Assembly (NCBI GenBank): GCA_951406725.2
Contig: OX597831.1
Span: 72,602,001-72,666,000 of the forward strand
DNA from: Octopus vulgaris
Taxonomy: Eukaryota
Reading direction: 5' to 3'
DNA: 64,000 nucleotides
The position numbers and the translations under genes are program-made. Positions 1,330 through 48,334 of this stretch are shown here, piece by piece. Positions within the stretch are counted from its first letter, which is position 1; every line of letters starts with the position of its first letter. The notes beneath the pieces were generated by a model. The model made no database searches. It worked only from the letters and a program-made list of their open reading frames with translations, and was not told the origin of the DNA.

Positions 1330-1716
1330 TTAGTAATTTTAATATTTCTATTATTGAAAACAAGTGAATGTATTCCACTGTAACTAGGTAAATAAAATCT
1401 TCGAACAGATGGTCAGTAGCGACACCTGTGGGTCTGATTATGCTGCATTGATAAAGGGCAACAACCCTGAAACATGTCTGCAGATGTCTGACTAGCAAGG
1501 TGAAGTGGCTGACCTCCCCTGTTCGAAGGTTTGTAATGGACGCAGGTTCGTGTGTCAAATAGCTAGTTAGAGGCGGTGGCCTCTTGGAGCTAATCAGCGA
1601 CAGCTTTAGTCTTATATTTATAGACTGCCATATTAGTATGGCGATAACTATTAATATCCAGTAATGCTGCCGTAATCTCCTTTAGAGAGACTTAGTAATT
1701 TTAATATTTCTATTAT
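1330..1716 (+). mobile_element. Insertion of about 340 bp carrying the hammerhead motif, bounded by a 25-bp direct repeat
   Basis: TTAGTAATTTTAATATTTCTATTAT at 1330-1354 and 1692-1716. Confidence 0.65.
1443..1483 (+). ncRNA. Degenerate minimal hammerhead motif
   Basis: CTGCA-TTGATAA-AGGG(caacaa)CCCT-GAA-ACATGT-C-TGCAG: all three stems pair and the triplet is GUC; the core differs from CTGATGA at two positions. Confidence 0.55.
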
Positions 1717-2584
1717 GTTAGTAATGTTTTACTTAATTAAAATTAATGTGGATCCCAGTTTCAACCAAAAATTGTGTGTGTAGCAATTTGTCTATAATAG
1801 TCACTGAGTTTTAAAAGTAAATGAGAACTGAACTTATAAGTCACAGAAAAGTATCTTAGATCTACTTCAGCCTGGGTCTGGGACATCAGAACACCACTCT
1901 TATGCAAAATCTATGCTTTTATACAAGTCAATGTTGTTTCCAAATCCCCTATACAATGTTATAATTGCCAATTCATATTACCAAAAAGTTTCATGTGGAA
2001 GAAACCTTCAAATATGGAAAGATAAATCAACTCTCATTGGACCCAAATGAAAGGAAAAAACACTTTCCATTCAGTCATATCTGATGATGATAGATTCATG
2101 TCTACACTTTTGGAAGGTTCTTCAGCAAAAAGCTATTTACTAAAGTGATTTGGCTGTTATGAGGTTAACATTTTTAATATGGTATAAATAATATACCCAC
2201 TCTATTACCTAATGTACAAGTGCCTGCTCTTTTGTTTCTACTAACGTATGAAAACTTGTACAACTCTCTCTCTCTCATATATGAAAGAGAGAGATGAGGA
2301 GGACAATATATGAGAGCTTATACTGTATAGGTAGGATAAAAATATTCAGTGACCAAATGCTTGTTTATAATTCCATAACATTATAAGAACATTGCATTAC
2401 ATCCCTGATCAAAACATCATGGTTTTCATGTTCAGTTTTACCTTGGTGTATGAAATACTTACCACATCTTGTAGGGGTCTGGATACTGGAGTTACTTCTT
2501 CAATGGCAAATCTTCTCTTTCCAATGGCATGCATTAAAAATTTGCTTTACATTCATTTACCAGTAACTGGTAAAAAAAAAAGAA

Positions 2585-2805
2585 CAAGAGGTGCTGAAAA
2601 GTTCCTGGCTCTGGATATGAAAAAAAAAATACGGTAGGATCAGTTAATTCTGATTTTATTCAGTATATTCCCCTCTCAGATTCACACACTTATTGCAGTG
2701 GTCCTTCAGTTTTTCTAAGCCCTGTAAAAGATCTCAGAAGGTTGGGCCTCCAACCAGGCTTTTTGCAAGACCCTTAAAGCTAGAAACTTTTCAGCAGCCC
2801 TTGTA
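2585..2805. mobile_element. Tc1/mariner-type MITE
   Basis: TIR GAGGTGCTGAAAAGTTCCTGG / CTAGAAACTTTTCAGCAGCCC; second copy at 16029-16246. Confidence 0.75.
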
Positions 2806-3385
2806 CAATAAAGTATCAACCCAGCAGACCTTTGTGTGTGCATGTCTAAACACACACATTCATAAACATAAGATTTATGTCTACATGGGGTAACACAGTT
2901 TAACATGTAGTGTATAGAAATTTTACTTTTATTCGTACATCATAGTTTAGTATGTCATGGTAATGGTAAATTACAAACAAACCAATAACCATTTGTGGAA
3001 TCAATGGTTATTTTCTTTGTTTATATTTTTATTTGTAACTTGTCTCCACAATAGAATTATGCTCAAGTAATTTCTCCTTTCTCTGCTAAGACTCTCTTCA
3101 CAACAACTGCAACGAAATTTAACAAGCTTTATGTTTTATACCAGAATTGTTCAAGAGGAATGGTGTCGATTTCCAAACCATTGGTTTACTGTCTTACTAA
3201 TGGTAATAATGGCAAGAGATATTCTCTGTAGTGAACAGATAATGAAGGGGAAATTAAACAGAAGCACTAGGTTTCCTCACCAACATTTATCTTCACCTAT
3301 ATATATAGATCAGTAGCCACTACACACATTATTTTTCTCTCCTTGTTTCTCTTCTTTTTTTTCTCTCCTTGTGTTTTTCTGTGTT

Positions 3386-3422
3386 CCTTTCTGTAGAAGA
3401 GCGTAGGCTCGAAACCTAAAAG
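3386..3422 (+). ncRNA. Hammerhead-like variant in a short repeat between (AT)n tracts
   Basis: CTTT-CTGTAGAA-GAGC(GTAG)GCTC-GAAACCT-A-AAAG: stems I and II pair, but the core and stem III deviate. Confidence 0.35.
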
Positions 3423-3780
3423 ACTTTTTCAATTCCTGAGCGTTATACTAATACATCTGTTTGTTTTGTACACCACCTGTCTTTGTGTTTTTTTTTTTTC
3501 ATGAACTCTCCCCCTATATATATATAGGTACACATTAAATAAAGATATACACCTCTATTATTATATAACAGAACCTTATAAAATGTCCAGTATTGTTGAT
3601 GCAATATTTCATACTATCTGTATAATGTCATCTCTTGAATCCAATATCTTTCATTTTCTTTATTATATAAAATATTCTTAGAATAGCTGGTAGGGACACC
3701 GTATTTCGTTTTGCCACTATGATATGCTACCAATTATATTAAAGGTCCATAAATCAATGCAGTGTTTTACTTTTGGATAT

Positions 3781-4056
3781 TCTATAGAAATTAGAGCCAT
3801 CACGGAGAGTGACTAGGTTTCATATACGAATATGTAAGCAATGCGATCGAAGATAGAAAAATAGGTAATGGGTGTACATACATATTTCTCATTAGAACCA
3901 CATCCAACCCATTAAGCATGGTACTGAAGAAAGAGCAACAATTCCTGAAATATGTGTATACACCCATTATCTGGTTTTCTTTGATTGCATTGTTTACATA
4001 AACATATTTGCATACGATACATTGTGACTTTCAGTACTGGCTCTAAATTCTATTGA
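3781..4056. repeat. Degenerate foldback with a hammerhead-like core (CTGAAGA...GAAA, 3924-3950) at its centre
   Basis: Inverted pairs: TAGAAATTAGAGCCA/TGGCTCTAAATTCTA, ATGTAAGCAATGC/GCATTGTTTACAT and TAATGGGTGTACATACATATTTC/GAAATATGTGTATACACCCATTA. Confidence 0.55.
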
Positions 4057-5167
4057 AAATCAGTAGAGATAACTCTTCAGAATAGATATCTGTGTATTAT
4101 AAAATTGATTCCTGCAAGATGTTTCCATCTCCCGCAAAACAAAATATTTGTGTGAACATCGCTTTGACAAAGTTATGTTATTCAAATAGAATCATTCATA
4201 AACTATTGTTTTATGGTTTGTGTTGTGGTGATTTTGTAATTATTTTTCAGTGAAAACTTGAAATACCAATCTTTCTGTCTAACTTAATACTACTTTTTCT
4301 CAACTTAATACCAGCCTGTCCAAGAATGCCACTTCTGGTTTTATGACACAAAAATCCTCCATTTTAATGCATTCCTATTTGAATTTAAACCATTTGTTAT
4401 TTCATGTAGAACCTTTTAAGTACAGTTCCAAACAAGAAATTACTAACAGAGAAGTTATTTGATTCATTCCATCCAAACTCTTGATGATACGTAACTGTGT
4501 AATTTAGCCCCTGGAGACATTGTCTCCACTCATAAACACACACATCGCCCGGTCTGAGATTCGAACCCGTGATCTCTCGACCGCAAGTCCACTGCTCTAA
4601 CCGCTAAGCCACGTGCCTCCACACAGGTAGCAGGATTGGATCAATTCATGTCCAGTTGAAACTTATTTTATCAACCTCCAAACAATGAAAAACAAAGATG
4701 ATCCTCATGGAATTTGAACTCAAAACATAAAGCATTTTCCCAACATGCTAACAATTCTGCCAATTTTTCACTTTCAATAATAATAATAATAATAATAATA
4801 ATTTAAGAACAATAACAACAACACTGATGACAAAACATAATGAGGTTAATTTACCAAGTTTTTTTTTTGTTGTTTTTTTTACACAAAATTCAGACTTTGT
4901 TTTTAAATAATACAATGGACAGAAGGTATTACCAAATAATTTGTTTGTATTTTTTGGTGTTTGTTTACATTGAATAATTTACTGGCCATTGGATTCCGGC
5001 CACTGGAGTTCTGATTTTTAACAGTTTTTTTTTTCTTTTTTATTTATTTTTTTTGGTCAACTGGAGGAATCAGTAACCATTTAACTTAACGTTGGGGTCA
5101 GTTTAATATTCCAATAGATCTTCAGTTCGTTTCTTCAACATTAAGTCAGACGGGGTGAGGGTTTTAG

Positions 5168-5202
<35 letters not shown>

Positions 5203-5234
5203 ACTTAAAGAGAAAGACAGACAGGGAGAAAGAG

Positions 5235-5265
<31 letters not shown>

Positions 5266-5715
5266 AGCAGGCCCAGATAGACAAGCAGATAGTGATAGAC
5301 ATAAATAGAAAAGAAGGGAGAGAGAGAGAGAGATGCATATAGACAGAAGTAAACACTTACAAGCGAAGACACATCCACACTCACATCCACACACAGATAC
5401 AGATAAATACATACTTATACAGTGAGGTGGGGGCAGAGAGTTTACAAGTCAATATGAGAGGGGAAAATGAAAAAGTGGTAAAAGTTCAGAGCGACAGTGA
5501 GGTGGGGGGGGGGGCATGAGAGGGATTTGGTAATGTGGGCATTAATGCTGTTTATAAGTAAAACCTTATTGACAGGATGAGCGAGGAAGGACAAGAGTTC
5601 AAATACAAGAGCAGTTGGGAAGAGCGTTTGCTTAAATATAACATGGGGGACAGGGTGGGGGAATGAAACAATTAAAACAAAATATAAACAGGTGAACAAA
5701 AGACGCTGAAATTTC

Positions 5716-5763
<48 letters not shown>

Positions 5764-6017
5764 ATGCTTTCACATGCATTTGTAATAATTTTGCATATTC
5801 ATCAGGATGTCTTTGCGACATATATGTAAAATATTTGAGGTTTTTGAGTATTTGTGCTTTGAAAGAAGCATGTGTATGTATACGCTTGTATATGTATACA
5901 TTTATATGTATGAACATATATATATATATATATATATATTCATTTAGAAATTATATTTATATGGAAATTATTATTTGTAAATCTCAACAAAAGATATTCA
6001 GCAACAGTCCTCTAGAA

Positions 6018-6294
6018 TAAAGATTATTTGCCAACCTGACAGGGCAGTCTTGGTTTAGGATGCATGTTGCTGTAATTAGCCCCCCCTGGAGACATTGTCT
6101 CCAGCTGGCTATATGACAAGATCTGTGTCCTTATATTTTTGAACAAGGGGTGGGTGCTGAATACCTTTGTTCGAAAATATAAAGACACAGATCGTGTCGT
6201 TTAGCCAGCTGGAGAAGATGTCTCCAGGGGCTAAATTACGGCAACATTCATCCTAAACCAGGACTACCATGTTAGGTTGGCAAACAATCTTTTA
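6018..6294. repeat. Foldback element with arms of about 130 bp
   Basis: 6018-6148 is an imperfect reverse complement of 6164-6294, with a short central spacer. Confidence 0.85.
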
Positions 6295-7109
6295 TATATA
6301 GACATGTGTGCACACTTACACACACACACACACACACAATATTTGTGTTATTGTATTAGACTAATCATTTCTTTGAAGCTAGTCTAAAATTCAAGTTACC
6401 CTTCAAAAACATCACGCAATATTTATAACAACCACCCTTTCTACCATAGACACAAGGCCTGAAATTTGTGGGGAGTGGGCAAAGTCAATTACATCAACCC
6501 CAGTATTTAACTGATACTTAATTCATCAACCTTGAAAGGATGAAAAATCAAAGTCGACCTTGGCAGAATTTGAACTCAGAATGCAAAGATGGACAAAATG
6601 CTGCAAAGCATTTTGCCCGGTATGCTAACAATTCTGCCAGCTTGCCACTTTAATAATAATAATAATAATAAAGAACTGCTCCTCAATAATGAAGAGGAGC
6701 AGAAAAAGGGAAAACTCTGATTCACAAATAGAACAGAAAAGAAGATTAAAGAGTGGGACTCTATTCAGGGGCTTTTGTTTTAAATCTGTTTTTTCTTTTC
6801 TTTTCTCTAATCTTTTTCTGTTATGAGAAGAAAAAAAAAACACTTTCCTGAACTACTTAAAGAAATCATAAGCAACAATATCAGGTGGGGAGGACTTGTA
6901 TATAATATAATAATAATAATATTATATCTTATCGCATGGTATCAGAATATATTATACATATAAACCTTATATCGTATATGTCATATATATATAATTGCTT
7001 TTATATGGGGAGAAGGCCATAATGCAGGGGCAAGAGAGCATTCGATTTTATTGGCCCCCAAAACTTGATTAGTACTTTTTATTGACCCCTGTAGAGATAA
7101 ACCTTGGAG

Positions 7110-7147
<38 letters not shown>

Positions 7148-7628
7148 TGTATGTATACACACACATTTAAAGTCAAAATCATATATATATTTTATATGTA
7201 TTATGCATTACATATAAATATGCATATATATATATACTCATACATATATATGTACGTACATACATATATATATATAATATATGTATTATAGAATACATAT
7301 AAATATGCATATATATAATACATTGTTATATCATTTATTATACAGTTATTATATGTATGTATACACATAAATATGTTAAATAAGATTCGGGTAAAAACCT
7401 TGAAGAATGCTATGCAAAGCTTGTCCACCAGTATTGGCTACCTGATGTCATCATACAGTGGAAATGCTCCAGCAACAGGCTATACATCAGTGATTCCATA
7501 GTATACGTAGAGTTTATACAAATAGATAAATGATAGAAAAAGGAATGAATGACATTCTTTATTTAAAACCACTTCTCGGTGAGTTTAAATAATACAATTC
7601 ATTCAATTTCCCATCATCTAATCTATTC

Positions 7629-7669
<41 letters not shown>

Positions 7670-7947
7670 GTATATAATTATAAACATATATATACGTAAG
7701 ATACATATGTTTATATATATGTATAAATATATTTGCTTACACACAATTATCTTGAAGAGACCAACTGCTTTGTCTTTAGACGGTATCATAATACTTCAAC
7801 CGATAGAAACAGCCCCATGATTATTTTGTGGCTGTTCTTGCCATTGTCATTTGACTCCATATCCTCCTCATCATCATCCTCATCATATAAACATTAACAC
7901 CACTATCATCGTCATCGTCGTCGGCAGTGTGTTCTTGTAAACCTTAC

Positions 7948-8084
7948 ACTGAAGCGACAAAGTAATTGATCATCACATTGAAAGGTAGACAGACAGGTAA
8001 CGGCTACCGAAAAAGCCATATTTTTTTCAGCAAATTTGAGTTTTTAGCTCCTTTACCTTGTTGGTCAGGACTGGTGGCTCCTCC
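7948..8084 (-). CDS. Candidate exon of a second gene (EEPPVLTNK to a donor at 8057, or ATG at 8019 giving MAFSVAVTCLSTFQCDDQLLCRFS to a donor at 7948)
   Basis: Long polypyrimidine tract plus ATGTAG acceptor; two possible donors (AAG|GTAAAG and AGT|GTAAGG). Confidence 0.3.
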
Positions 8085-9024
8085 CTACATGAAATACCAA
8101 AAGAAAAGAAGAAGAAAAAAATAGGGGGACGCATAGAAAATGAAATATATAATGAAAAAGGGGGCTGCCTTGTTATCAATGGAAGGAAATATTTTGAGGG
8201 AATTGTAATATACTGTTGATGGTTTATAATAATGATAATAATAAGCAGAATTGTAATATTTTGTGATGCCAAGAGAAATAATGGTTTCAATCTTTGGTAC
8301 AAGGTCAGCAATTTGAGGAGAGGGGTTTGACCTCTGTCCTTGCTGGTATGAAAGACAAAGCTGACATTGGTGGGATTTGAACAAAATTCTGCTAAGCATT
8401 TTGCCCAGCATGCTAACAATTCTGCCAACTCAGTCTTCGTAATATTTAATAATATTACAATGATAATTTAACAAAATAATAGTAATATTTATTGATAATA
8501 CTAAAATAGTAATAATTTATAATTTATATTGTAATAATTTATGCTAAAATGTAGTATTAATAAGTTGTCCTGATATTTAATAATTTTAAATGATAGTTAT
8601 GATTTTTAATAGTAGAAACCCCCACTAAATTTTGATGAAAGGAACTGTTGAATATATTCACTGGAATATTTGATGGGTAAAGGTGACCCCCAACTAGAGT
8701 TGAAATCAGAATGTAATGGGCTGGGATTATTATATATAAGGCATTTTGGTCTGGTGCCCTGCTGATTCTGTCTGTTGCCCCAATACTACTACTACTAACT
8801 ACTAATAATAATAATGGTACAAGACCAATAATTTTGAGGGGAGGGGGACAAGTTGATTACATCAACCTTAATACATGATTGGTACTTTATTAACCCTGAC
8901 CTTGGTGGGATTTGAACACAATGTAAAAAAAAAAAACTGAAAGAAATGCCACTTTGCATTTTGTTCTGATATGCTAATGGTTTGGCCAATCCGTCACTAT
9001 AATAATAATAATAATAATAATAAT

Positions 9025-9585
9025 AAATGCCCTGATGCAGTACCAGGCATTGGCTCTCATGGCTTCTGATCTTAACTGACTGGATGTGTTATCATGTACA
9101 TTGTTTTGTCTTGGCATAAAAGATGGCCTACAGCAAATATTCTGCTCAATACCACAGATTTGCTTGTCAGTTGTTTGACCTTAACCAGTTGAGCATGTCC
9201 CTTAGTCGCTGACGATATGTGCATCTCTGATCACAAGCAGAAGTAGTGGGGGAGCATCATAGCCATGTGTTGAGAGGGATTCTTTGGGGTTTGAATAATT
9301 CACCTCTGGAAACATGGGTGTTTCATTCAACATCCTTAAACAACCCTTATTCAGGGACCTTTTGAGCAGGATGGGTTACTCGACCTGAAGAAAATTCTAA
9401 GTGGGCCCCACCTGCAAGGTCATGTGCTGTTTATCTTGATATGAGATCACCATGTTGCACACATATGGTTGTGATGCATGTGCCTGGTGTACCCTTATCA
9501 GATGGGTAGTCATGATGGGTATACTGGGCTTCGTATATTTTACCCCAGTGTCACTTTGATGGCATGCACTGCTCTCTCACTCAAT
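9025..9585. mobile_element. Interspersed repeat of about 560 bp inserted in (AAT)n, copy 1
   Basis: Colinear with 62883-63445; both copies are flanked by (AAT)n. Confidence 0.8.
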
Positions 9586-9626
9586 AATAATAATAAAAAT
9601 AATCTTACAAAAACTCTTTTGGGAGT

Positions 9627-9854
9627 TTAACCCTTTCGTTACCAACCCGGCTGAAACCAGCTCTGGCTCTGAGTACAAATGTCTTGTTTTCAAAAGTTAT
9701 GAATTAAAATCTTCCACTAAGCCTTAGTCCCAATTTATGTTCCTAACACTAGCTTAATGATAACTAAGTTATTTTACTAAATTCTTTGTTATATTTAAAA
9801 TAATTGAAAGAAATACGGAGCATCTCAAAATAAATACAGTAACGAAAGGATTAA
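9627..9854. mobile_element. TTAA-flanked (piggyBac-type) MITE
   Basis: TTAA-CCCTTTCGTTAC ... GTAACGAAAGGA-TTAA; related copies at about 608-884, 23159-23382, 23780-23992 and 24009-24238. Confidence 0.8.
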
Positions 9855-9855
9855 A

Positions 9856-10250
9856 ATCCAAACAGATTGAGTGATACACTCCCATTAACTGGGGATTTTT
9901 ATGGCTTAGAAAAGCGATGCAAAAATATGACATTTCAAATGTAGCTACCCCAGATACCCACAGTATGGCAAAGAGCTTGAGAAAAAAATTGATAAATCTT
10001 GAGTGTTCGGTTTGGAAATTTCAAGAATGTGGAACTCAAGAACTAAAGCTGTGCCAACAGTAATTGGAGCTGTTGGCTTTGTTCCTACCAAGTTTGCAAC
10101 ACATCTCCAAGCTAAATATAATATCTAATATTGTAACTTTACAAAAATAGACACCACTTGGATCTGTAGAAATCCTGCTGAAGGTACTTGGGTCATATGA
10201 CTTGAGGGAGAGCACCCAGTATGTGACTGGTTAAGACCTGAAGCCTAAGG
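9856..10250 (+). mobile_element. Highly decayed RLE LINE C-terminal remnant
   Basis: A PTVIGAVGFVP-like segment near 10054-10090 resembles the VPxIxGALG motif; many stop codons. Confidence 0.4.
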
Positions 10251-10630
10251 TAATAATCTCTTATGCTATAGACACAAAGCCTGAAATTTTGTTGGATATG
10301 AGATAGTCAACTACATCAACCCCAGGGTGTAACTGGTACTTAATTTATCGACCCTGAAAGATTGAAAGGCAAAGTCGACCTCAGCAGAATTTGAATTCAG
10401 AGCGTAAAGACAGACGAAATACTGCTAAGCATTTTGCCCGGCATGCTAACGTTTCTGCCAGCTCACCGCCTTTCTAGCATAATTATTAAGTCTAGAAATG
10501 TTTGGGAGACAAAGGAGAATCAATTAGATGGACATGAACCCCAGTATACTTTATTTTATTAATTAGAAAAAGAATGAGATGCTAAGTAGATTTTGGCAGG
10601 ATTTGAACTTAGTATCTAAAGAGCGGTAAC

Positions 10631-10676
<46 letters not shown>

Positions 10677-10995
10677 TTTAGTTTCATTGATGAAGAGGAG
10701 GAGAAGATAAAGCCATATCTTTAGAAAGAACCCATTACAAGCAAACAAACAAACAAAAAAGCAAAAATCATGCAAGTTCTAGCATGCTGAAGCAAAAATT
10801 GTTCCTGTTAATTATTTGTTCGAAAATACATTAACGTGTAATATGTGTGTTCACCTATGTTTACTTATGTTCACTTACGTTCATCTATTCAAAATATCAT
10901 GATATCTTTGATATTGGCTGATGGTCTAAATTCTCTTAAAATTGAGATTGAATAAATACTTAAGATGTTCAGAAACTTAAAAATAAAAAATATAT

Positions 10996-11380
10996 AGGCG
11001 CTGGAGTGGCTGTGTGGTAAGTAGCTTGCTAACCAACTACATGGTTCCGGGTTCAGTCCCACTGTGTGGCATCTTGGGCAAGTGTCTTCTGCTATAGCCC
11101 CGGGCCGACCAATGCCTTGTGAGTGGATTTGGTAGACGGAAACTGAAAGAAGACTGTCGTATATATGTATATATATGTATATGTGTGTGTTTGTCCCCCT
11201 AGCATTGCTTGACAACCGATGCTGGTGAGTTTACGTCCCCATCACTTAGCGGTTCGGCAAAAGAGACCGATAGAATAAGTACTGGGCTTACAAAGAATAA
11301 GTCCCTGGGTCGATTTACTCGACTAAAGGCGGTGCTCCAGCATGGCCGCAGTCAAATGACTGAAACAAGTAAAAGAGAGA
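10996..11380 (+). mobile_element. tRNA-derived SINE family A (head GGAGTGGCTGTGTGGTAAG...GGTTCAGTCCC, internal (AT)n)
   Basis: A/B-box-like head. Near-identical copies at 17424-17970(+), 26755-27130(-), 29340-29725(-), 33610-33985(-), 44090-44503(+), 52929-53470(+) and 61043-61425(+); older copies at 16660, 19380, 47030 and 60270. Confidence 0.9.
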
Positions 11381-18939: not shown

Positions 18940-18969
<30 letters not shown>

Positions 18970-18975
<6 letters not shown>

Positions 18976-19287
18976 ATAAAGGATTGTAGGTAAGGCCAAA
19001 ACAATGCAAAGTAAGTGCAAGGTAAATTACAAGAAAACAAAAATGTGAATTAATGTAGACTTACCTTGCATTCAATATTTCAGGGTTATGACCTCATCTT
19101 CAAGAAAATAAGCAAACATTACCAAATTTCTTGAAAATGAGGTCATAACCCTGAAATATTGAATGCAAAGTAAGTCTACATCAATTCACATTTTTGCTTT
19201 CTTGTGATTTACCTTGCATTTACTTCGCATTGTTTTGTGTGATCTTGAGTTGTTTTGGCCTTACCTACAATCTTTTATACAATATAT
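18970..19287. repeat. Foldback element with arms of about 135-155 bp, each containing a decayed hammerhead-like motif
   Basis: 18970-19107 is the reverse complement of 19127-19287 with one indel. Arm motif: TTC-TTGAAGA-TGAGG(tcataa)CCCT-GAAAT-ATT-GAA. Confidence 0.8.
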
Positions 19288-19330
19288 TCTACACAATGCT
19301 TCACAGTAATTATTCCATTATAATATATCT

Positions 19331-20779: not shown

Positions 20780-20956
20780 CATATATATATATACACTTTT
20801 TTATTGAATCTGCAAAAACATCCAAAACCGGCTGACAAATGGAAACATGAAACTCTGAGTAACAGTTTTGTGATGTCTTTGCAGCTTTAATGAAAAAGCA
20901 TATTACTCTACCTTTAGTATTTGAGTACTATTTTTTCCACCTTATTTTATATTTCT

Positions 20957-34960: not shown

Positions 34961-35109
34961 TTTTTATTGGGACTGGATCCAGAACCATGTGGTTGGGAAG
35001 CAAACCTCTTACCCCATGCCCACACTTGCACCTGTCAATGAAATAAGCACAAGTCTGGAGCACTGGCATCAATGCCACTGTCCACCTCAAATTTCAGGCT
35101 TCGTCCTTA

Positions 35110-36850: not shown

Positions 36851-37846
36851 TTAACCCTTTCATTACTATATTTCTGACCAAAATACACCCCTTATGTGTT
36901 TCAATTAATTTCTAACATAATCATAAATTTAGTCTGGTTTCATTAAACAACTATAACTTTATTAACGGGAATTTTGGAAGATAATTTAATGAAATGTTCT
37001 CAACCAATTCTAAACTATAATTTTTGTCACAAAGTGACTCTAATTGCAGGTAGATACAGGTAAATTCAACAAAATATAAAATTATAAAAATTTTGTTCAA
37101 ACATCGCTATAGAAAATGGGTTATTAGCTAATATTCAATTGGGTATACAACAAAATTTTACGATAGAATTTGTTATTCTGGGTAACTTTCTGATACCTAT
37201 AATAATATTTATGGCAAAATAGTCTTAATTTCATTTAAGGTTGTGGCTCATTCGAAAAAGTAAAAAGAAATAGTCTAAGGCTTTACTCTTCTGGGAAAGT
37301 CTGTGGCTTGGTCCAGTTTCTTCAGAAAAATCACCGAAAGAAACAGTTTTTAAATTTCACTCCATTCAGGTGCCAATTCATTTTCTTTATCGCTGTCGGA
37401 GCTCTCGGATTCACTGTTTTCACTTTCGGAAAATGAAACATCAGATTCATTATAAAAACCACATGCTTTTTTTTTTCAGTCATAGAGTTAGATTTATGAA
37501 GGTCTTCAGTAGAAAATCCTTCGAATTCTGACTCGCTGCTTGATATAATGAAATTCGTATCCATTGTTTGTCAGAATTACAAATTTTGAAAACACAATAG
37601 GAACAAATTTCGGAAAAAAATCTCCCAAAATTCACGGAATTACAATTACACTTCGATTTTTGTACAAAACTGTCGTTGAACACTTTATGAAGTATAATAC
37701 GTATTTTCACGAATGTACTAAAGAGATTTGCTCTGATATTCTCATTTAAATATGAATAGGTAAATTCGGGCAGTTTTGGGCGGCTTGGTCACATTAACCA
37801 AAATTTTTTCGGGCGGTTTCGGGTGGTTTGGTAACAAAAGGGTTAA
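36851..37846 (-). mobile_element. Non-autonomous piggyBac-type element, about 1 kb
   Basis: TTAA-CCCTTTCATTAC ... GTAACAAAAGGG-TTAA; the minus strand encodes MDTNFIISSSESEFEGFSTEDL, resembling an acidic transposase N-terminus. Confidence 0.75.
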
Positions 37847-38040
37847 GAGCACAAACAATTCCTACGTCTCAGGAATAAAAACAGATTCTACCAAAACTAA
37901 GTTTTAAATCAGAAATTCTAAAAGGAATGAACAAGGAGGAAAATGGCAGAACAGCTTCGGTTGGTTGCTGACTGGAGCAAATAAACAGATGGGGATTGTT
38001 TCTTTAGATGACCCCCTACAGCCCTTCGATACCCTTCTTA

Positions 38041-38075
<35 letters not shown>

Positions 38076-38079
38076 AGGT

Positions 38080-38276
38080 CAGTGGTTTTCAACCAGGGTT
38101 CTGCAGAATCTTAGGGTTCCGCAAAAAGTTACAAAACTGCTAAAATCGGCAGTAATTTTTAAGTCTCCTTTGCAGATATGTGTGCATAAGACTATTAAAT
38201 TATTGCACAGGGGTTCCTCGAGCCAGTGGAATGTTTCCTTGGGGTTCTGCTCCAGCAAAAAGTTTGAAAAGCACTG
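38080..38276. mobile_element. hAT-type MITE
   Basis: TIR CAGTGGTTTTCAA / TTGAAAAGCACTG with a perfect 8-bp TSD, CCCTAGGT. Confidence 0.9.
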
Positions 38277-38337
38277 CCCTAGGTTATGTGTTTTGATGGA
38301 TTGATAAATGGCAGTGGTGCCTAAAAAGTTGTCTTAC

Positions 38338-38418
38338 CTTTCGTTCTTCACATTTAATAGTTCTAAGGAGTTTTTGTATAGCATCGATCCAGCTGCTCAT
38401 GTCTGTTGGAGAATCTGC
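38338..38418 (-). CDS. PLEKHA1: PLEKHA1/2-like exon (ADSPTDMSSWIDAIQKLLRTIKCEERK; PH2 C-terminal helix)
   Basis: TCTCAG acceptor, GTAAGA donor, 81 bp, phase 0-0. ADSPxxMxSWI is the PH terminal helix. Confidence 0.9.
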
Positions 38419-38659
38419 CTGAGAACGAAAATGGAAGAGAGAAATCCACATCACATGAAGAAAATATAACACCTTTTTAAGGGTCAGTTGTTGCTGTTTA
38501 GCCCTAGGTCAGCCCTGACCAAAAACATTCATGACCATCTGGCCTGCTTTTCTATGTCTTCAACTACACAGTCCAATGTGCCCCTCCCCCCTCAAGATGC
38601 TAGAATATGACTTGTGGAGGATTTAGCTACAATTCCTAACAAATCGAGGAATCTTGTAA

Positions 38660-38932
38660 AAGATTTCTTGTTGGTTTGTCAATTGTTGTGATGCCAAGAA
38701 TCAACAGACCAACTTGTAAGTCCTCTATTCTTGTATCAAGGATTACCAAAACAATTATTGGTCCTATATTTTGTGGTGCCAGGAACCATGAAGACAATTT
38801 GTCAGTCTCATATTCTTGAGGTCCTACACTGTCACCAAACAATTGTTGGTTCTATATTCTGGTGGTATCAGGAATTACCAAAACAACTTGTTGGTCTTAT
38901 CTTTTTTTTGTCAGAATAACTAGTTGGTCCTA
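38660..38932. repeat. Degenerate minisatellite, units of about 43-45 bp, about 6 units
   Basis: Recurring CAA(C/T)TTGTTGGTC-TATATTCT...ATCAGGAATTACCAAAA. Confidence 0.6.
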
Positions 38933-40554
38933 AATAAGAAGTGTTAGTCTTTAAGTCACAGAGATACTGTATACAAAGCATTTCAAGTCTTCATAAAAGA
39001 CCCTAGAATGTTGGTTTCAAATTTTGGCACAAGGCCAGCAATTTCAGGTGATGGGAGGGTAAGTCAATTACATTGACCCCAGTACTCAACTGGTACTTAT
39101 TTTATCAACCCAAAAGGATGAAAGGCAAAGTCAGCCTCAGTGGGGTTTGAACTCAGAATCTAAGAGTGGACACAGTGCTGTTGAGTATATGCTACCTTAA
39201 AAGACCCTAAAAATATTGTGGAGAAGAGTTATACCTTAGAAGATGTGATATTTCATAAATCGCCTGATGGACAAAAACCATCAACTTCAGTAGGTTTTGA
39301 TCTCAGAACACAGACCTAGCGAAATGCTAAAAGATATTTGGATATTTTTCTCTCACACCCTACTGATTCTGCCAGTGCAGGCTGTGCGTATGTGTCTCAT
39401 TGGTGTTTCAGTCAGCTGAGTCTCAAAGACTCCGGCTGACAAATTCCACAGAGTAAGGAACCAATATTGCAACCATGACAACATTAACGTCTGCAGCTGC
39501 GCAGAATTACTGAAACTTTGTACAGATCTGCGATGTTTCTCAAGACAAAAGAGAAGTGAGACAGAATACAAGAAAACATATGTAGATTGTCGGCAGCATT
39601 ATTAGAGTATTGGATACAATGCCATGCGGCATTTGTTCCTGGCCCCTGCACTCTGGGTTCAAATCCTGGTGAGGCCAGCTTCGTATTTCCTCTTATTGGG
39701 GGTCAGTAAAATAAAGAACCAATCCAAGATGGTGGAACTGATGGAATTGATAAAGAGTCAGTTTCAACTTTGTCCATTGTGACAGTAATCCCAGTGAGAG
39801 GCACTGGTGCCATGCTGCCTGCACTGGCTCAGGATGGTGACCTTTCTCTTGGATAAACATCAGTGGCAGGCAGAGAGAGAAGACATGGGTAACAGTTGGT
39901 CATTCTCAGAAAATCTTGTCCAGGCCTGCAACACACGTATTTACAGACGAATGGTCAACATTGACCGACGGAGGTCCTGCTTTAACACCAGGTCAACCCT
40001 AATCTGGCAGGTCAATGATTAAAAGCAATCCAACCAGAATTTTTTCATGCAGAGTGTATCTAAGAACACATTATCTAATAATATGAAGGTGCTTGACTCA
40101 TGATTGTAAGGTCAGGAGTTCAATTCCCAGCAGCACATCGGGTCCTTGAGCAAGACTTTATTTCACATTGCTCCAGTTTACTCAGCTGGTAAAAATGAGT
40201 GGTACCAGTAATTCACAAGGGCCAGCCTTGTCACATTTTGTGTCGTGCTGAATCTCCCTGAGAACTATGTTAAGGTTTCCCATGTCTGTGGAGTACTCAG
40301 CCACTTGCACATTAATTTTGCAAGCACGCTGTTCCATTCATCACATCCACAGGAACCCTTGATAACTGACAATATCAGTTTCTCTAATACGTCTTTGACA
40401 TTTAGCTGCTATTTTTAGCATATTAAGCCACCATACAAAAGCTCCTTTAATGACTGACTCTTCTCTAAGAAAATTGGTTTTCCTATTTTTATTTTATTTT
40501 GGTTAGTGCTGATCTAAATAGATAGTAAAGCAGTCTGGTCTGTTGGTCACTTAC

Positions 40555-40618
40555 CTGGACATAGAATGTTCTCTTTGAGGTAATTATTTCAAATAGGTTA
40601 TCTCTGTCAAGGTGTGTC
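40555..40618 (-). CDS. PLEKHA1: PLEKHA1/2-like exon (THLDRDNLFEIITSKRTFYVQ)
   Basis: TTTCAG acceptor, GTAAGT donor, 64 bp, phase 2 to 0, complementing the previous exon. RDNLFEI..RTFYVQ is nearly identical to TAPP PH2. Confidence 0.92.
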
Positions 40619-41635
40619 CTGAAACAAATTAGAAAAAAAAAAATAATAATAATAATAATTGTTTCTAATTTAAGCAGATGGTCAGCAAGTTTTGTGAAAG
40701 GTGGTGGGCAGGATTAGATTGACCTCAGTATCTGACTGGTATTTCATTTTATTGATCCCCCTCCCCCTCCAGAAGGATGAAGCATGAAGCTAGCCTGAAT
40801 AGGATTTGAACTCAAAACAAAGCTTTTTTTGTTGATCATTATTATTTGCAAACAAATTGCAGCTGCAAGAGTTACCAGTTGAAAGCTCCACATGGATTTG
40901 CTAGTACACCTAGGGAGGGGGGATCATTAAGAGAGAATGTGTGCCATTTCAGGGCCTTCCTCTCCAATAGCATTAATACACACCAGACCCACTCACTGAG
41001 ATGAGGCCCTTCATGTTATATCAATTGGTCCCTAGGTTTTGCTCAATATTCTTCAAGCCTTTGCTCATTGTCTCTTTTAACCAAATCCAATGGCTTTTCT
41101 TCTCCACTGCATCATTCATGATGGTGTTTGTTTCATAAGGAGTTAAACCTAGAGGCAACCACTATCATCCCATACTGCGCCCAATGAATCCTCTACAACC
41201 AACTTCTAATGGATAATGCATTGTGTCTATAATATATTGGCGTCAGTCTTTGTCACTTAATCCTTTAGCATTTAAACCAGCCATACCTGGCCAAAAATAA
41301 TCTACCTGTATTATCTCCAAACTGGCCAGATCAAACCTCTCACACCTACCCTACAATATTATTCTAAAAACAAACAATCACGTCATTGAAATCTCAAAGC
41401 TACAAAGTAATACAGAATTATTTACATTTGACAGATATTTGTCCTCATTTTAATAATAAATCTCAGAGCAAGTTATAAACAGTAGCTACAACACATCGTG
41501 ACGTATATTTGCCATTTAAATATGGCTAACCCCTAAGGGTGGATGCTACTGTAGTTTGTAGCCCCAGGAGGACACCTCCTCCAGCTGGCTATAGACACAC
41601 TTTCTGTGCCCTATGTCCTCATTTTGTTTGTTGTT

Positions 41636-41681
41636 AACACAACGTTTCGGCTGATATACTCTCCAGCCTTCATCAGGTGTC
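41636..41681 (-). ncRNA. Minimal type I hammerhead ribozyme motif
   Basis: The minus strand reads GACAC-CUGAUGA-A-GGCUG(gagaguauau)CAGCC-GAA-AC-GU-U-GUGUU: stem I, intact core, stem II, palindromic ACGU stem III and a GUU cleavage triplet. Confidence 0.75.
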
Positions 41682-41985
41682 TTGGGGAAATTTCAAACCT
41701 TGGTTCTCATTCCTAAAGTATTTTTCAATATTATTATTATTATTATAGCGGCGAGCTGGCAAAAACGTTAGCACACCAGACAAAATGCTTAGCAGCATTT
41801 CGTCTGCCGTTATATTCTATATTCAAATTCCGCCGAGGTCAACTTTGCCTTTCATCCTTTTGGGGGTCGATTAAATAAGTACCAGTTACACACTGCGATC
41901 GATGTAATCGACAATCCCGTTGTCTATCTTTGTTTGTCCCCTCTGTGTTTAGCCCCCTGTGGACAATAAAGAAATAATAATAATA

Positions 41986-42022
<37 letters not shown>

Positions 42023-42166
42023 TCACTGCCTGGAATCGAACTCGGAATCTTGGGGTTAAGAGTGCAGGCTACTAACCCTAAGATTCCAGGCAGTGATCTG
42101 AATAATAATAGTAATAACATCGAAAAATACCTTAGGAATGAGAACCCAGATTCGAAGATTTCCCAA

Positions 42167-42212
42167 GACACCTGATGAAGGCTGGAGGGTATATCAGCCG
42201 AAATGTTGTTTT
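42167..42212 (+). ncRNA. Inverted second copy of the hammerhead motif (substitutions in stems III and I)
   Basis: GACAC-CTGATGA-A-GGCTG(gagggtatat)CAGCC-GAAAT-GTT-GTTTT. Confidence 0.6.
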
Positions 42213-42485
42213 AACAACAAACAAGATGAGGACAAATATCTGTCAAATGTAAATAATGTACATAGTTCCTCGTCTCTTAAATACAGAACTGCAAAGCAGG
42301 ATTAATTCAAAATAATGTAAATAAATAAGGATTACATTTGACAGAGTAATCTGGATGCTAAAACGGTTAAATCTCAAATCTAGTTTCATACAGATTCATA
42401 AAAATGATGCAATCATTTATCAAGAAGTTCCGTGCAACCAAACCTTACTGGTTAATCCTTTTATGAGCAATGTTTCTCTTGAAAT

Positions 42486-42870
42486 GCGGAGGCACAATGG
42501 CCCAGTGGTTAGGGCAGCGGACTCGCGGTCGTAGGATCGCGGTTTTGATTCCCAGACCGGGCGTTGTGAGTGTTTATTGAGCGAAAACACCTAAAGCTCC
42601 ACGAGGCTCCGGCAGGGGATGGTGGTAATCCCTGCTGTACTCTTTCACCACAACTTTCTCTCACTCTTTCTTCCTGTTTCTGTTGTACCTGTATTTTTAG
42701 GTGCCGGCCTTGTCACTCTCTGTGTCACGCTGAATATCCCCGAGAACTACGTTAAGGGTACACGTGTCTGTGGAGTGCTCAGCCACTTGCACGTTAATTT
42801 CACGAGAAGCTGTTCCGTTGATCGGATCAACCGGAACCCTCGTCGTCGTAACCGACGGAGTGCTTCCATT
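42486..42870 (+). mobile_element. SINE with the family C head and a different 3' body
   Basis: Same head as 28850-29153; 3' body shared with about 12960-13135, 40200-40370, 11820-12120(-) and 22640-22880(-). TTTCTCTTGAAAT is duplicated at the flanks (42473 and about 42869). Confidence 0.8.
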
Positions 42871-43583
42871 TCTCTTGAAATACACTGCCTCGGTTTCAGA
42901 TAATTTTGAAAATGAAGAATTTAGCAAAATAACTGTCATTATCAATCAGGTGTTTGGAACTTAAATTAACAAGAAATTTTAATGAAAGATTTTAATTTAG
43001 ATCACTTTAAAAAGGGGAAGTTTGTACCATAGAACCAGAAGCAATCGGCATCAAAAAGATACCAACCCGTCTCTACTTCGCAAAAGATTGCTTCCCTATC
43101 ATGAGGTATTAAGTTCAATCCCAGTGTATGGCATAAATACCCAAGATTACCACATTCCTTTTGAATAAAACTGGGTCATCTGAATGGTCATCGAGTGGAC
43201 TGCCATACCTGTAATTCAGCGGTCTGGCTTTGTTACACACAAATGTGTCCAATTGTGTCTAGAGACTACAGTGAGAGTGGAAGCCTCTGTGGAGTACTCA
43301 GCCACTAACATTTTAATTCAATAAGTGGGTAGCTCAGTTGATTGAATTGTTAACCGATTATTCGATAAACCTGTTTTTATTCACTGATAAATAAAGTTGA
43401 CCAGATAATGGTGACAATGTGAAAAGTCTCTCTCTCACACAGACACAGAAATACAGAATCACAATATACAAGAGAGAAAGAGTAAGAGAAGTGGGAGGGG
43501 GTGAGAGAGGAAGAAGAGATAACTGAGAGAGTGAGGAGTGCAGGAAAAGATCAATGGAGACAAGAGACAATGTGTCTACTTAC

Positions 43584-43645
43584 GCAATTGACTTTTTAAC
43601 TTCTAGTAGATTATTTTTAGGTATTGTTCGTATTGGAGACAGTGA
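43584..43645 (-). CDS. PLEKHA1: PLEKHA1/2-like exon (SLSPIRTIPKNNLLEVKKSIA)
   Basis: TTTCAG acceptor, GTAAGT donor, 62 bp, phase 0 to 2. PIRTIP resembles TAPP PLRVIP. Confidence 0.85.
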
Positions 43646-44089
43646 CTGAAAGAAATGGCAAGAGAAGTTAAAGAGATATTTATGGACGAACAATATCAGG
43701 AATAATAAATGCCACACAAGATACAGTTCTCTGTTTATTACACATACACACACACATAATATGGTAATAAAAGCAAGAGAAATTGAAGATATTTATGGAA
43801 TGACAATATCAGGAAAAAGAAATACCACACAAAAACGGTTTAAGATTTTGGCACAAGACCAATAATTTCAAGAAAGGGGATAAATCAATTACACTGAATC
43901 CAGTCCTCAACTGGTATTTATTTTATTGACCCCTGAAAGGACAAAAGGCAAGGTTGACCATGGCAAAATCTTCCTTTAGAATATGAAGACAAAATGCACC
44001 TGAGCATTTTACCTGGTGGCTTAACGGTTCCACCAGCTGGCCACCTTAATACCGCACGATAATACACATTGTGTAATAGTACACACATA

Positions 44090-44251
44090 GGCGCAGGACT
44101 GGCTGTGTGGTAAGTAGCTTGTTTACCGACCACATGGTTCCGGGTTCAGTCCCACTGCGTGGAACCTTGGGCAAGTGTCTTCTACTATAGCCTCGGGCCG
44201 ACCAAAGCCTTGTGAGTGGATTTGGTAGACGGAAACTGAAAGAAGCCTGTC

Positions 44252-44293
<42 letters not shown>

Positions 44294-44503
44294 ATGTGTG
44301 TCTGTGTTTGTCCCCCTAGCATTGCTTGACAACCGATGCTGGTGTGTTTATGTCCCCGTTACTTAGCGGTTCGGCAAAAGAGACCGATAGAATAAGTACT
44401 GGGCTTACAAAAGAATAAGTCTCGGGGTCGAGTTGCTCGATTAAAAGCGGTGCTCCAGCATGGCCGCAGTCAAATGACTGAAACAAGTAAAAGAGTAAAG
44501 AGT
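44090..44503 (+). mobile_element. SINE family A, full-length copy
   Basis: Same sequence as 10996-11380; (GTAAAAGA)n-like tail. Confidence 0.9.
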
Positions 44504-44604
44504 ACATAAAATGTGTGTATGTGTGCAGGATAAGGTATGTGGTAGGGGTGGATATTGTATTCTAGGTTACCTCACAGCACTCAAGACTTTTCTTATACGT
44601 TGTG

Positions 44605-45035
44605 GCCATCTGAGTGTGATCGTTGCCAGGGCCGCTGACTGGCTCCTGTGCTGGAGGCATGTAAAAAGCACCATTTGAGCGTGATCGTTGCCAGCGTCAC
44701 CCTACTGGTACATGTGCCAGTGGCACGTGAAAAACAACATTCGAGCGTTGTCATTGCCAGTGCCGCCAGGCTGGCTCCTGTGCAGGTGGCACGTAAAAAA
44801 CATCTTTTGAGAGTGGTCGTTGCAAGTACAGCCTGACTGGCCCTCGTGCCGGTGGCACGTAAAAGCATCCACTACACTCTCAGAGTGGTTGGTGTTAGGA
44901 AGGACATCCAGCTGTAGAAACTCTGCCAGATCAGATTGGAGCCTGGTGCAGCTTTCTGGCTCACCATTCCTCAGTCAAACCATCCAACCCATGCCAGCAT
45001 GGAAAGCAGACGTTAAACGACGATGATGATGATGT
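44605..45035 (+). mobile_element. Repeat family D (internal units of about 60 bp, ...GGAAGGGCATCCAGC..., (GAT)n tail)
   Basis: Copies at 12310-12635, 15280-15670(-), 24635-24843, 32560-32940, 47730-48123, 49890-50100, 55800-56130 and 61950-62598. Confidence 0.8.
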
Positions 45036-45609
45036 GACATGGTTCTCCTATTACAACTATTATAATAATCATTTCGAATATAGTCATAAAACCAGAATTG
45101 TAGTTGTTTATTGTATTAACACCAGTATTTAACTGGTACTTTATTTTATCAGCCCCAGAAGGGTCTCTCTGCTTAGACCCTATCCTTCCATCCTCCACTC
45201 CCAATACCTCAAAACTACCACAATATCGTTTCAGTCATTTGACTACCTGAATGAGGAGGCCTCTATGCAGTCACTTGACCTAGCTAGAAATGGCAGTGAA
45301 ACATCTCAAACAATACCCTACAGAAGAAAGGATATATTTGGTAAAATAGCAAAAGATAAGATGATCGATAACAACAAGATAAATAAGTTGGGTTTTTTTT
45401 TTGTAGCTATTTGGTTTGTCAAAAGTGTTTACAGAGGAACAGGTATGGTCAGTTGACTGGACTGGTTTATAAGGGGTCATCATTTTATTGAAGCCAGAAC
45501 AGGAAAAGATAAAACTAAAAACTTTCAAGCACTGAAGTCCAGTTTCCTACAGTTTGCACCAACACACTGGCTTTTAATATCAAACCTGGTAGTGATTTCA
45601 ATATAGAGG

Positions 45610-45840
45610 CAACAAGGGTCTCACCTTGGACACAGCAAGGGTCTTGTCTCAGATGCAGCAAAGATCACATCTCAGATGCAGCAAGGGTCTTGCTTTAGAT
45701 GCAGCGAGGGTCTAGTCTTGGATGCAGCAAGAGTTTCCACATGTACACAGCAAGGGTTTTGTCTTAAGACATAGTAAGGGTCTAGATACAACAAATGTCA
45801 TGTTTTAGACACAAGGGTTGCATCTTAAATACAAGGATAA
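45610..45840. repeat. Degenerate 23-bp minisatellite, about 10 units
   Basis: Consensus CAGCAAGGGTCTTGTCTCAGATG. Confidence 0.8.
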
Positions 45841-46237
45841 CATCTTATAAGACTCAGATTTGAATCTGGCTGAAGATTTTCATTCTGGAGAGAATTTTCC
45901 CAAATCTTAAAACATTTACTTTCCACAATAGGGCCACAACAAAATCCTCAGGGTATCTTTTCCTGGAACCTTACCAATTCTGTTCATCCACTGCCAAGAT
46001 TAGCACAAGGCTGCAGATTTTTGAAGTGGGGACAGTTGCATTAATTGTATCAACACTAGTATATGACTGGTAGAAGGAAGAATGGTAAAGTCTATCTAGG
46101 CGGAACTTGAACACATACAATAAAGTGCCTTTACTTACCACAACAAGAACAGTTAAAAGAATACTGAAAAAAAAATCTTAAATTACAAACAATAAAAAAG
46201 ACAAATTCCTAATTACAGAAAATAATTAAAAACTTAC

Positions 46238-46306
46238 TTGTTCTGATTGATAATATGAAATTCCTTGATCTGTGAGTACAAAAAACCTCCGTTTCCAGCT
46301 TTTCCG
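46238..46306 (-). CDS. PLEKHA1: PLEKHA1/2-like exon (RKSWKRRFFVLTDQGISYYQSEQ)
   Basis: Poly-T tract plus TCTTAG acceptor, GTAAGT donor, 69 bp. WKRRFF is the PH beta2 motif. Confidence 0.9.
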
Positions 46307-46920
46307 CTAAGAGATTAGGAAAAAAAAAAAATAATAATAATTGTGTCTAATTTCAGGACAAGATCAATAATTTTAAAGGGTGGTTGTAGAGTCAGTCAAT
46401 TAAATAAACCCCCACCACCACCACCACCACCCTCAGATGAATGAAAAGCAAAGCTGACTGTTGCAGAATTTGAACTGAAAACGTAAAGATTCAGAACAAA
46501 TAATACTATAGTCACAAGGCCAGCAATTTGAGGGAAGTTGAGCCAAGTTGATTCTATTGACCCCTGTGTTCAACTGGTATTTATTTCATCAACCCTGAAA
46601 GGTTTGAAAGGCAAAGCTGACCTTGATGGTGTTTGAACTGAGAACTGGAGGAACTGAAAGAGATGCTACTGAGCATTTTGTCTGATGTAGCAATGATTCT
46701 GCCAGCGATGATGATGATGATGATGGTGATTTCAAATTTTGGCAAAATGCCAGCAATTTTAGGGAGAGGTTTTAGTCAATTGCTTATTCCACTGGTCCCT
46801 TGAAAGGGTGAAAAGAAAAGTTTCTATGATAGGATTTGGGATTAGATCGTAAAGGACCAGAAGAAATGTTGCGAAACATTTTGTCTGACATTCTAACAAT
46901 TCTACCAACTTGCTGTCTTC

Positions 46921-46958
<38 letters not shown>

Positions 46959-48145
46959 CATAATCATTTAACATCCGTTTTTCATGCTGGTATGGGTTGG
47001 ACTGCTTGACAGAAACTTATTTTCTTTAAACCTGATATTTATTTTACTGGTTTCTTTTGGTGAACTGCTAAGATATGGGGACATAAACACACCAACATTG
47101 GTTGTCAGGTGGTGGTCAGGGACAAACGCACACACACATATATATATACATATACACACACACACAGCAAGCTTCTTTCAGTTTCTGTCCATCAAATCCA
47201 CTCACAAGACTTTGGTCAGTCCAAGGCTATAATAGAAGATACTTGCCCAAAGTACCATGTGGTGGAACTGAACCCAGAGCCAGTTGGTCAAGAAGCAAGC
47301 TTCTTACCAGACAGTCACACCATTTTAATGATTTCCTTACTGATGTTCTATACTGGATTGGAGAGGACAGCTCTGTCATCCAAAAGTTTTTTCCCTTACA
47401 ATTTAGTCTTATCTGTGAAACTCAACATTCTTAGATCTAACCCTAACCATTTCTACCCTGGTCTTCTTTTGGCCAACTTCTACCACAACTAAAACCATCC
47501 ACCACCAACACACAACATTCTTTCACCCACTGTTCATCATCCCTTTACATTATGTCACTCTTCCTGTCCCCGGTGCAGTCAACTCCCCCCCCCCCCCGTG
47601 TACTTGAACCACAGCACTCCTCGACTGTTTGACCACATTCAAACTCCTGTCTCTTGACCCACTGTAAACCACTTTCTAATTTCACTGCCACAAGGGACAA
47701 ACAAACAAATAGACACACAGACAGACAAATACATATCTCAGTGGCATGTAAAATGCAACAACCGAACGTGGTTGATGCCAGCCCCCTTGCCCTGACTGGC
47801 TTCTGTGCCAGTGGCACATAAAAGCACCATCCAAACATGGACGATGCCAGCACTGCCTTGACTGGCTCCCATGCCGGTGACACGTAAAAAGCATTATCCA
47901 ATCATAGTCGATGCCAGCCCCCCCCCCCCCTGGCCCCTGTGCCAGTGGCATGAAAAAGCACCCACCACATTCTAGGGGTGGTTGGCGTTAAGAAGGGCAT
48001 CCAGCCATAGAAACATTGCCAGATCAGACTGGTGCCTGGTGCAGCCTCCTGGCTTTCCAGACCCCAGTCGAACCGTCCAACCGATGCCAGCATGGAAAAT
48101 GGATGCTAAACGATGATGATGATATACATACACACACACACACAC

Positions 48146-48185
<40 letters not shown>

Positions 48186-48263
48186 TGGAGTAAACACATA
48201 AATGTGAAACAAGGTGGAAAAAAGAATACTCAAATATTTAAAAGCAGTTTTTGCTAGCAAAAA

Positions 48264-48301
48264 CTGTCCGACGACCGGGAACGTGAAACTCAGAGTAACA
48301 G
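48264..48301 (+). ncRNA. Hammerhead-like motif with variant core CCGACGA
   Basis: CTGT-CCGACGA-CCG(GGAA)CGT-GAA-ACTC(A)GAGT-A-ACAG gives stems I, II (one mismatch) and III with a GUA triplet. Flanked by inverted TATTTAAAAGCAG (48235) and CTGCTTTTAAATA (48320). Confidence 0.55.
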
Positions 48302-48334
48302 GTTTTGTTGAATTTTCTGCTGCTTTTAAATAAA

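Follow-up and report, generated by a model that had tools for sequence, protein, structure and literature searches.

Minimal hammerhead ribozymes of metazoan Penelope-like elements (PLEs) have been described as several consensus families per genome, with solo truncated copies, pairs on opposite strands, an extra base and a U3-A8 pair, and they are slow (PMC4209133). Non-LTR (long terminal repeat) retrozymes have been defined with PLEs named as a candidate carrier (PMC7229834), and carriage by PLEs was later backed by co-occurrence and phylogeny (Li et al., bioRxiv 10.64898/2026.07.22.740005); in both papers mobilisation by PLEs was inferred from co-occurrence and terminal-repeat similarity. 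PLE insertions are recognised by partial tandems, inverted truncated arms and a tail (PMC8557442), the tail corresponding to two start sites of the reverse transcriptase (RT), and in vitro the RNA of a green-anole PLE was inserted equally well with dead hammerheads, with no RNA ends at the cut site (PMC11167929). The window analysed here, a stretch of 64,000 nt of Octopus vulgaris (positions 72602001-72666000 of contig OX597831.1; assembly of 2.80 Gb in 227 contigs), holds hammerhead-like motifs of six families, named by window position A (1443), B (3386), C (3921), D (19071/19128), E (41636/42167) and F (48264). No literature on octopus hammerhead ribozymes dealing with these families was found, judging by title or abstract start. 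The presence of many hammerhead families in one genome is a published phenomenon, of which the window population is a further instance; what is added to the known picture is that an element which looks active has a U6 core and that a unit resembling retrozymes bears the insertion marks of PLEs.

We consider it probable that the motifs represent type I hammerhead folds located at the 3' ends of PLE insertions, that B, D and E are truncated coding PLEs, that A, C and probably F are non-coding and likely copied by PLE proteins, and that the U6 hammerhead of B cuts poorly or not at all. Sequence inspection located each motif, with the predicted order of stems and core, where the original prediction had placed it. 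A strict type I descriptor gave two matches in the window (A at 1448 on the forward strand, E at 41676 on the reverse strand) and none in 12 block-wise dinucleotide shuffles; permitting two core mismatches left the window at two and gave about one in the shuffles. The remaining motifs miss the strict descriptor solely through private decay, variant cores or short stems. In a genome sample of 600 kb (60 unbiased 10-kb stretches, used in place of a whole-genome descriptor run), nine strict matches were obtained against 0, 1, 0, 0 and 0 in five shuffles, and five additional U6 matches appeared when position 6 was freed, none of them in shuffles. Hammerhead density therefore lies above the shuffled background both in the window (2 vs 0) and in the sample (9 vs 0-1).

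Each family had 1,052-3,915 first-look candidates in the 2.8-Gb genome, 40 of them being scored per search, in agreement with the predicted genome-wide and diverse population of type I hammerhead-fold families of the Penelope world. BLAST matches of at least 40 nt in the 600-kb sample numbered 14 for B, five each for E and F, four for A-like sequences, one for D and none for C. These 29 family matches predict about three motifs per 64 kb, so that the window, with nine, is enriched relative to the genome average. A rough extrapolation, subfamilies included, puts B at about 65,000 copies genome-wide. The 146 matches of an Rfam scan of the window at E<=5 included no hammerhead. The description of the types as unrelated holds for their sequences, which show no unit-to-unit match outside low-complexity stretches, but not for their architecture, as A and C have one stem II layout in common.

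Several cores had been called degenerate. Counts per alignment column (rows below 70% identity removed: 2/27 for C, 2/38 for D, 2/53 for E) identify most of these odd cores as fixed variants of their families and not as decay: A and D share U3-A8, F carries C4 (22/26) and B carries U6 (30/30), the cores of C and E being canonical. The U3-A8 pair, U4C and the extra base are already published, U4C as a viable viroid variant. The odd stem bases of the window copies, on the other hand, are private decay, the family having G at B position 3416 (25/30), G at 19140 (30/36) and C at 19152 (27/36) in D, C at 42204 (33/51) and G at 42210 (46/51) in E, and A at 48275 in F (25/26). Family consensuses restored cores and stems, with C3-G8 or U3-A8, G5, A6, A9 and G12-A14 present in A, C, D, E and F (the last with C4); B stayed U6 and did not regain A6.

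Compared with the published PLE minimal hammerheads (PMC4209133), the extra base after A9, the G10.1-C11.1 pair and the palindromic stem III (15.2-16.2) all recur in B, D and E. Families A and C are without the extra base and carry A-U at 10.1/11.1, and F deviates at these positions. The cores of A and D equal the rows of Schistosoma mansoni families 3 and 4 in Fig. S3 of that paper and E is a textbook case, whereas F is unlike the published set in its C4, its stem II of 2-3 bp and a variable base before G12. B has U6 where all 56 representatives of Fig. S3, collected with a descriptor that required A6, have A6.

Families B, D and E are 5'-truncated 3' ends of coding PLEs. In some loci, fragments of a GIY-YIG endonuclease were found 5' of the motif and were then used as search queries. 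The motif of B lay on the same strand 765-886 nt downstream of GIY-YIG in 30/30 loci, that of D 28-160 nt downstream in 27/30, and that of E followed the stop of the open reading frame (ORF) in 20/30 by a simple pattern, with deletions in several others. As all three continue 5' into RT/GIY-YIG ORFs, the original reading of the elements as non-coding is refuted for them; it stands for A and C and probably for F.

The full unit of B measures about 4.5 kb and carries the motif in both terminal repeats (4/4 fetched stretches), the repeats being 97.2-99.8% identical. One copy (L306) has an ORF of 1082 amino acids with an RVT_1 match (E 1.4e-07) and a weak GIY-YIG match (E 0.006) below the Pfam cut-off. 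All 150 scored protein matches, the best-ranked of 18,126 candidates, were 100% identical, and DNA identity over 30 loci averaged 99.4%; by these values the element looks very young and recently mobile. The window copy belongs to an older sister subfamily with 74% identity to young B over 207 nt, which had its own endonuclease upstream in 6/25 loci, picked for length. B is set beside the Neptune-clade PLEs of Craig et al. 2021 (PMC8557442) by a linker motif, not by a tree, and differs from them in its non-canonical hammerhead.

At position 6, U was found in 30/30 anchored and in 28/30 unanchored copies (A once, C once). Among the latter, every one of the four bases occurs at position 7, and either A or U at position 17. 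A sister family that shares this stem II, here called G, has A6 in 19/19 (3 of 90 rows were removed as not core-like). In four public runs with four organism labels, position 3394 shows no second letter at the 5% level, and 3395 and 3418 vary in all four; this comparison covers 22,546 contigs that are at least 80% alike, so that A6 families below 80% fall outside it, and one run may be the source of the assembly. U6 thus holds across the subfamilies of B and in the four public runs. The B pattern had no matches in metagenome contigs. An alternative register with the core shifted by 3 nt was rejected on inspection: it leaves stems I and II unformed, and the variable sites coincide with positions 7 and 17 in the register adopted here alone. 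Family G is a seventh abundant family that was not seen in the window (L257, L272, L292, L293, L298 and others); its 3' flank marks it as the sister of B, and it mostly has C4.

The B hammerhead likely cuts poorly or not at all, a reading that draws on the low published activity of A6C in Mg2+ and of CUGA-turn mutants. In Mg2+ A6C is slow, and Mn2+ rescues it (PMC7151607); single and double CUGA-turn mutants show low activity except for the C3-G8 swap (PMC9901934). In the partially covered literature on hammerhead core variants at position 6 only A6C turned up, and no report of A6U was found, Lunse et al. 2017 and some figures and supplements, which could mention U6, lying outside the search. 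The natural A6C hammerhead of phage Bcep176 (PMC3088659, PMC7151607) resembles B in having a pyrimidine at this position, but it is a single phage example with C, whereas the U of B is fixed in what a rough extrapolation puts at tens of thousands of retroelement copies. The youngest B subfamily is predicted to pair U4-U7 with the GAAA side in 3/4 contexts (P ~0.85). As a general cause, such a hairpin lock was discarded, being limited to that subfamily and those contexts and not found in A7, C7 or G7 copies.

It is possible, if rather unlikely, that the U6 core is instead a working ribozyme variant that cleaves fast enough to be useful when dimeric, when given another metal ion or when the PLE protein is present. 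This alternative keeps its weight since every other core base is conserved: C3-G8, G5, A9, G12-A14 and the stems are fixed, variation being confined to free positions 7 and 17. A relaxed scan of one full B unit found no hammerhead-like motif besides the U6 one, and the natural A6C cleaves well in Mn2+. The mutant data and the predicted U4-U7 pairing speak against it, as does the low speed of PLE minimal hammerheads to begin with. Either way, descriptors that demand A6 overlook B (five extra matches beside nine in 600 kb), so that hammerhead counts of genomes may be low. Nearly all Penelope elements have a hammerhead, which is slow in vitro and could be dispensed with in one reconstituted system; B, an intact and near-identical element whose sole motif is U6 and whose sister family offers an A6 comparison, is a natural experiment that bears on whether cutting is needed.

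Judged by its sequence, family A is a non-coding, retrozyme-like tandem monomer of 362 nt. The long duplication reported at this insertion (1330-1354 = 1692-1716) proved to be the terminal overlap of a head-to-tail unit and not a target-site duplication. In 22/25 loci the 3' end of the unit stands upstream of the unit itself, the window copy being among the three without a longer tandem, and one copy (L052) has three hammerheads spaced at 362 nt. An unbiased locus (L255) contains a second A subfamily with identical layout. Inverted arms occur in 11/25 loci, and 7/12 of their outer ends fall at unit position 327-328, which is 59 nt short of the opposite end; the 3' end lies at a TA repeat in 21/25. 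Partial tandems, inverted truncated arms, a 59-nt tail and TA-repeat targets are thus the insertion marks of A, and since the first three are published PLE marks we infer from this anatomy that A is mobilised by PLE proteins. The anatomy of its insertions makes the proposed partnership of Penelope elements and retrozymes testable. A copy outside a TA repeat (L053) has a target duplication of about 13 nt, and the window copy may have one of 12 nt (1324-1337, 1713-1726) with an overlap into the element through microhomology. A tandem unit more distantly like A (L274) has a shorter period, about 260 nt.

The A monomer (42% GC) folds with a z score of -5.5 as a linear and -4.7 to -6.1 as a circular molecule, compared with -0.03 to -3.75 for four control repeats from the window. 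Across eight sequences picked by hand, 99% of cells are paired and two pairs show compensation on both sides; the covariation score was matched by only 1/500 shuffles, a significance inflated by the kinship of the sequences. Its hammerhead, with a 5-bp stem I and a 4-bp stem II with a 6-nt loop, is a type I hammerhead of canonical size. Like the metazoan non-LTR retrozymes (PMC7229834), A is a non-coding tandem monomer within the range of about 170-400 nt, with a type I hammerhead and strong self-pairing. It differs from them in occurring as dispersed 1-3-mers with the PLE marks of tail, inversion and TA target, in its U3-A8 core and in its A10.1-U11.1 pair, and it is known here as genomic sequence. 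Among public runs no RNA run was listed as containing A, a negative that carries no weight in the argument.

Family C, at about 80% identity, is old, and a few loci show a period of about 440 nt. The copies of F are short and 26/30 are foldbacks; two subfamilies each begin at their own short palindrome, and F is probably a non-coding unit. This is held as probable only, given that D copies likewise break near the hammerhead. With protein queries from four PLE lineages, no PLE ORF was found adjoining 25 loci of A, 25 of C or 55 of F (51 distinct places for F). In some F copies (L351, L353, L135) at least 100-200 nt of unrelated sequence separate the left-arm stub from the hammerhead, possibly captured by template switching. 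The claim that four of the motifs sit in foldbacks holds for C, D, E and F.

That every one of the six families consists of nothing but 5'-truncated ends of coding PLEs, with no propagation as a non-coding unit, is improbable: it is true of B, D and E, and truncation near the hammerhead is common in D, but the tandem layout of A in both subfamilies, the period of C and the lack of adjoining ORFs at A, C and F speak against it, and for A it is already unlikely. Still less credible is the view of the original prediction that all six are ribozyme-processed non-coding retroelements. It fits A, C and probably F and fails at the ORFs of B, D and E; ribozyme processing of B is moreover doubtful in view of its A6U core and of the PLE RNA inserted in vitro without cleavage (PMC11167929). 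Chance matches in AT-rich, foldback-rich DNA, or miniature inverted-repeat transposable elements (MITEs) of DNA transposons, can practically be set aside: few window motifs satisfy the strict descriptor and shuffles come close once mismatches are allowed, but the excess in the 600-kb sample, the restoration of cores and stems at family level, the linkage to ORFs and the unequal arms with a one-sided tail, ending in TA repeats, agree with neither chance nor the fixed terminal inverted repeats and short target duplication of a MITE.

By a mechanism modelled on published PLE work, the PLE reverse transcriptase would begin at one of two internal sites near the RNA's 3' end, giving copies with or without the tail, and would often halt or fold back near the hammerhead, giving foldbacks. 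Copies of A longer than the unit suggest a circular or tandem RNA template, and the fold of B would likely have been retained for a role that needs no fast cleavage. More tentatively, and as a possibility we do not favour outright, the most abundant and apparently active Penelope lineage may have swapped A6, a 'universal' base of the hammerhead core, for U and kept it through subfamilies and related species, as a new working core or a non-cutting RNA signal, while A would be a retrozyme with the Penelope footprint of tail and inversion and so direct genomic evidence of Penelope-moved retrozymes. Several points weigh against the account of PLE-borne hammerheads given here. The six families are known from DNA sequence, with cleavage and circular RNA as predictions, and the other core positions of B are conserved across subfamilies, as expected of a still-active ribozyme. 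The stem I/III register of C is ambiguous, and a fixed 5' end near the hammerhead, as in F, can also arise in truncated coding PLEs. The loci used in the ORF searches for A, C and F were ranked by similarity. Among 14 PLE-bearing stretches no autonomous partner of A, C or F was found, so that mobilisation by PLEs then rests on insertion anatomy; the single match for A was another A-type fragment.

Table 1. Positions of the six hammerhead families in the window.
Feature	Positions	Strand	Description
Family A unit	1330..1716	+	Single retrozyme-like unit of 362 nt and 25 nt of the unit before it; non-coding
A hammerhead	1443..1483	+	Stem I of 5 bp, U3-A8 core 1448-1454, stem II of 4 bp with a 6-nt loop, stem III palindromic; cleavage predicted after 1478
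Family B copy	3308..3514	+	5'-truncated 3' end of older Neptune-like PLE subfamily, flanked by TA repeats
B hammerhead-like motif	3387..3422	+	Core C3-U4-G5-U6-N7-G8-A9 (3391-3397), extra A, 4-bp stem II; private change at 3416
Family C inverted arm	3689..3888	-	Two pieces, without intact core
Family C direct arm	3919..4088	+	Hammerhead; core 3924-3930 canonical, stem II of 5 bp with a 6-nt loop, ambiguous stem I/III register
Family D inverted arm	18967..19107	-	Hammerhead copy at about 19071-19106
Family D direct arm	19122..19290	+	3' end of coding PLE that looks decayed; hammerhead 19128-19163
D hammerhead	19128..19163	+	Core U3-A8 with an extra U; stem II of 5 bp at family level
Family F additional copy	20824..20954	+	Decayed, with tail
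Family E inverted arm	41614..41746	-	Intact minimal hammerhead 41636-41681; further arm piece 41417-41451
Family E direct arm	42054..42290	+	tRNA-like segment remnant, AAT repeat, hammerhead 42167-42212, tail; 3' end of Poseidon/Penelope-type PLE
Family F inverted tail	48173..48236	-	
Family F direct arm	48254..48335	+	Hammerhead 48264-48301: U4C core, stem II of 2-3 bp capped by a GNRA loop, stem III an interrupted palindrome

Inverted 5'-truncated arms forming foldbacks were frequent in D (16/25) and E (24/30), with only 2/25 in B. The elements of D and E contain frequent stops and look decayed. Terminal repeats of PLEs hold introns, and a splice-donor-like sequence stands directly 3' of stem I of the D hammerhead in most copies (window 19166-19174).

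The PLE of family E has a tRNA-like segment between the ORF stop and the hammerhead, with look-alikes of the A-box and B-box recognised by eye (L320, L024, L310-L339) and a remnant in the window copy at 42054-42095. ARAGORN (11 loci) and Rfam called no tRNA in this segment, and a T-run of four stood 3' of it in only 2/9 measurable copies; an RNA polymerase III promoter inside the terminal repeat is possible. Three of 17 unanchored matches begin at the segment (the anchored set is biased in this respect), too few to establish a SINE-like pile-up of E 5' ends there, and there may be a non-autonomous E subfamily with a tRNA-like head. By title or abstract start, no published case of a tRNA-like segment in a PLE terminal repeat was found.

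A second very young PLE (L216-L245, L370-L374), with 150/150 matches at 98-100% and an ORF of 717 amino acids, is presumably Nematis-like, going by its linker motif. Its hammerhead has a C4 core, a long stem II and a stem III identical to that of family F. As a partner of F this element was rejected, C4 and stem III being all that its otherwise different hammerhead has in common with F.

The decayed F copy at 20824-20954 was absent from the motifs listed originally. The window also holds abundant SINE-like (short interspersed element) families with 5-9 copies each (10991-11290, 44084-44512, 47930-48122, 50407-50598 and others) and is rich in TA/CA microsatellites, to which its Rfam microRNA matches correspond.

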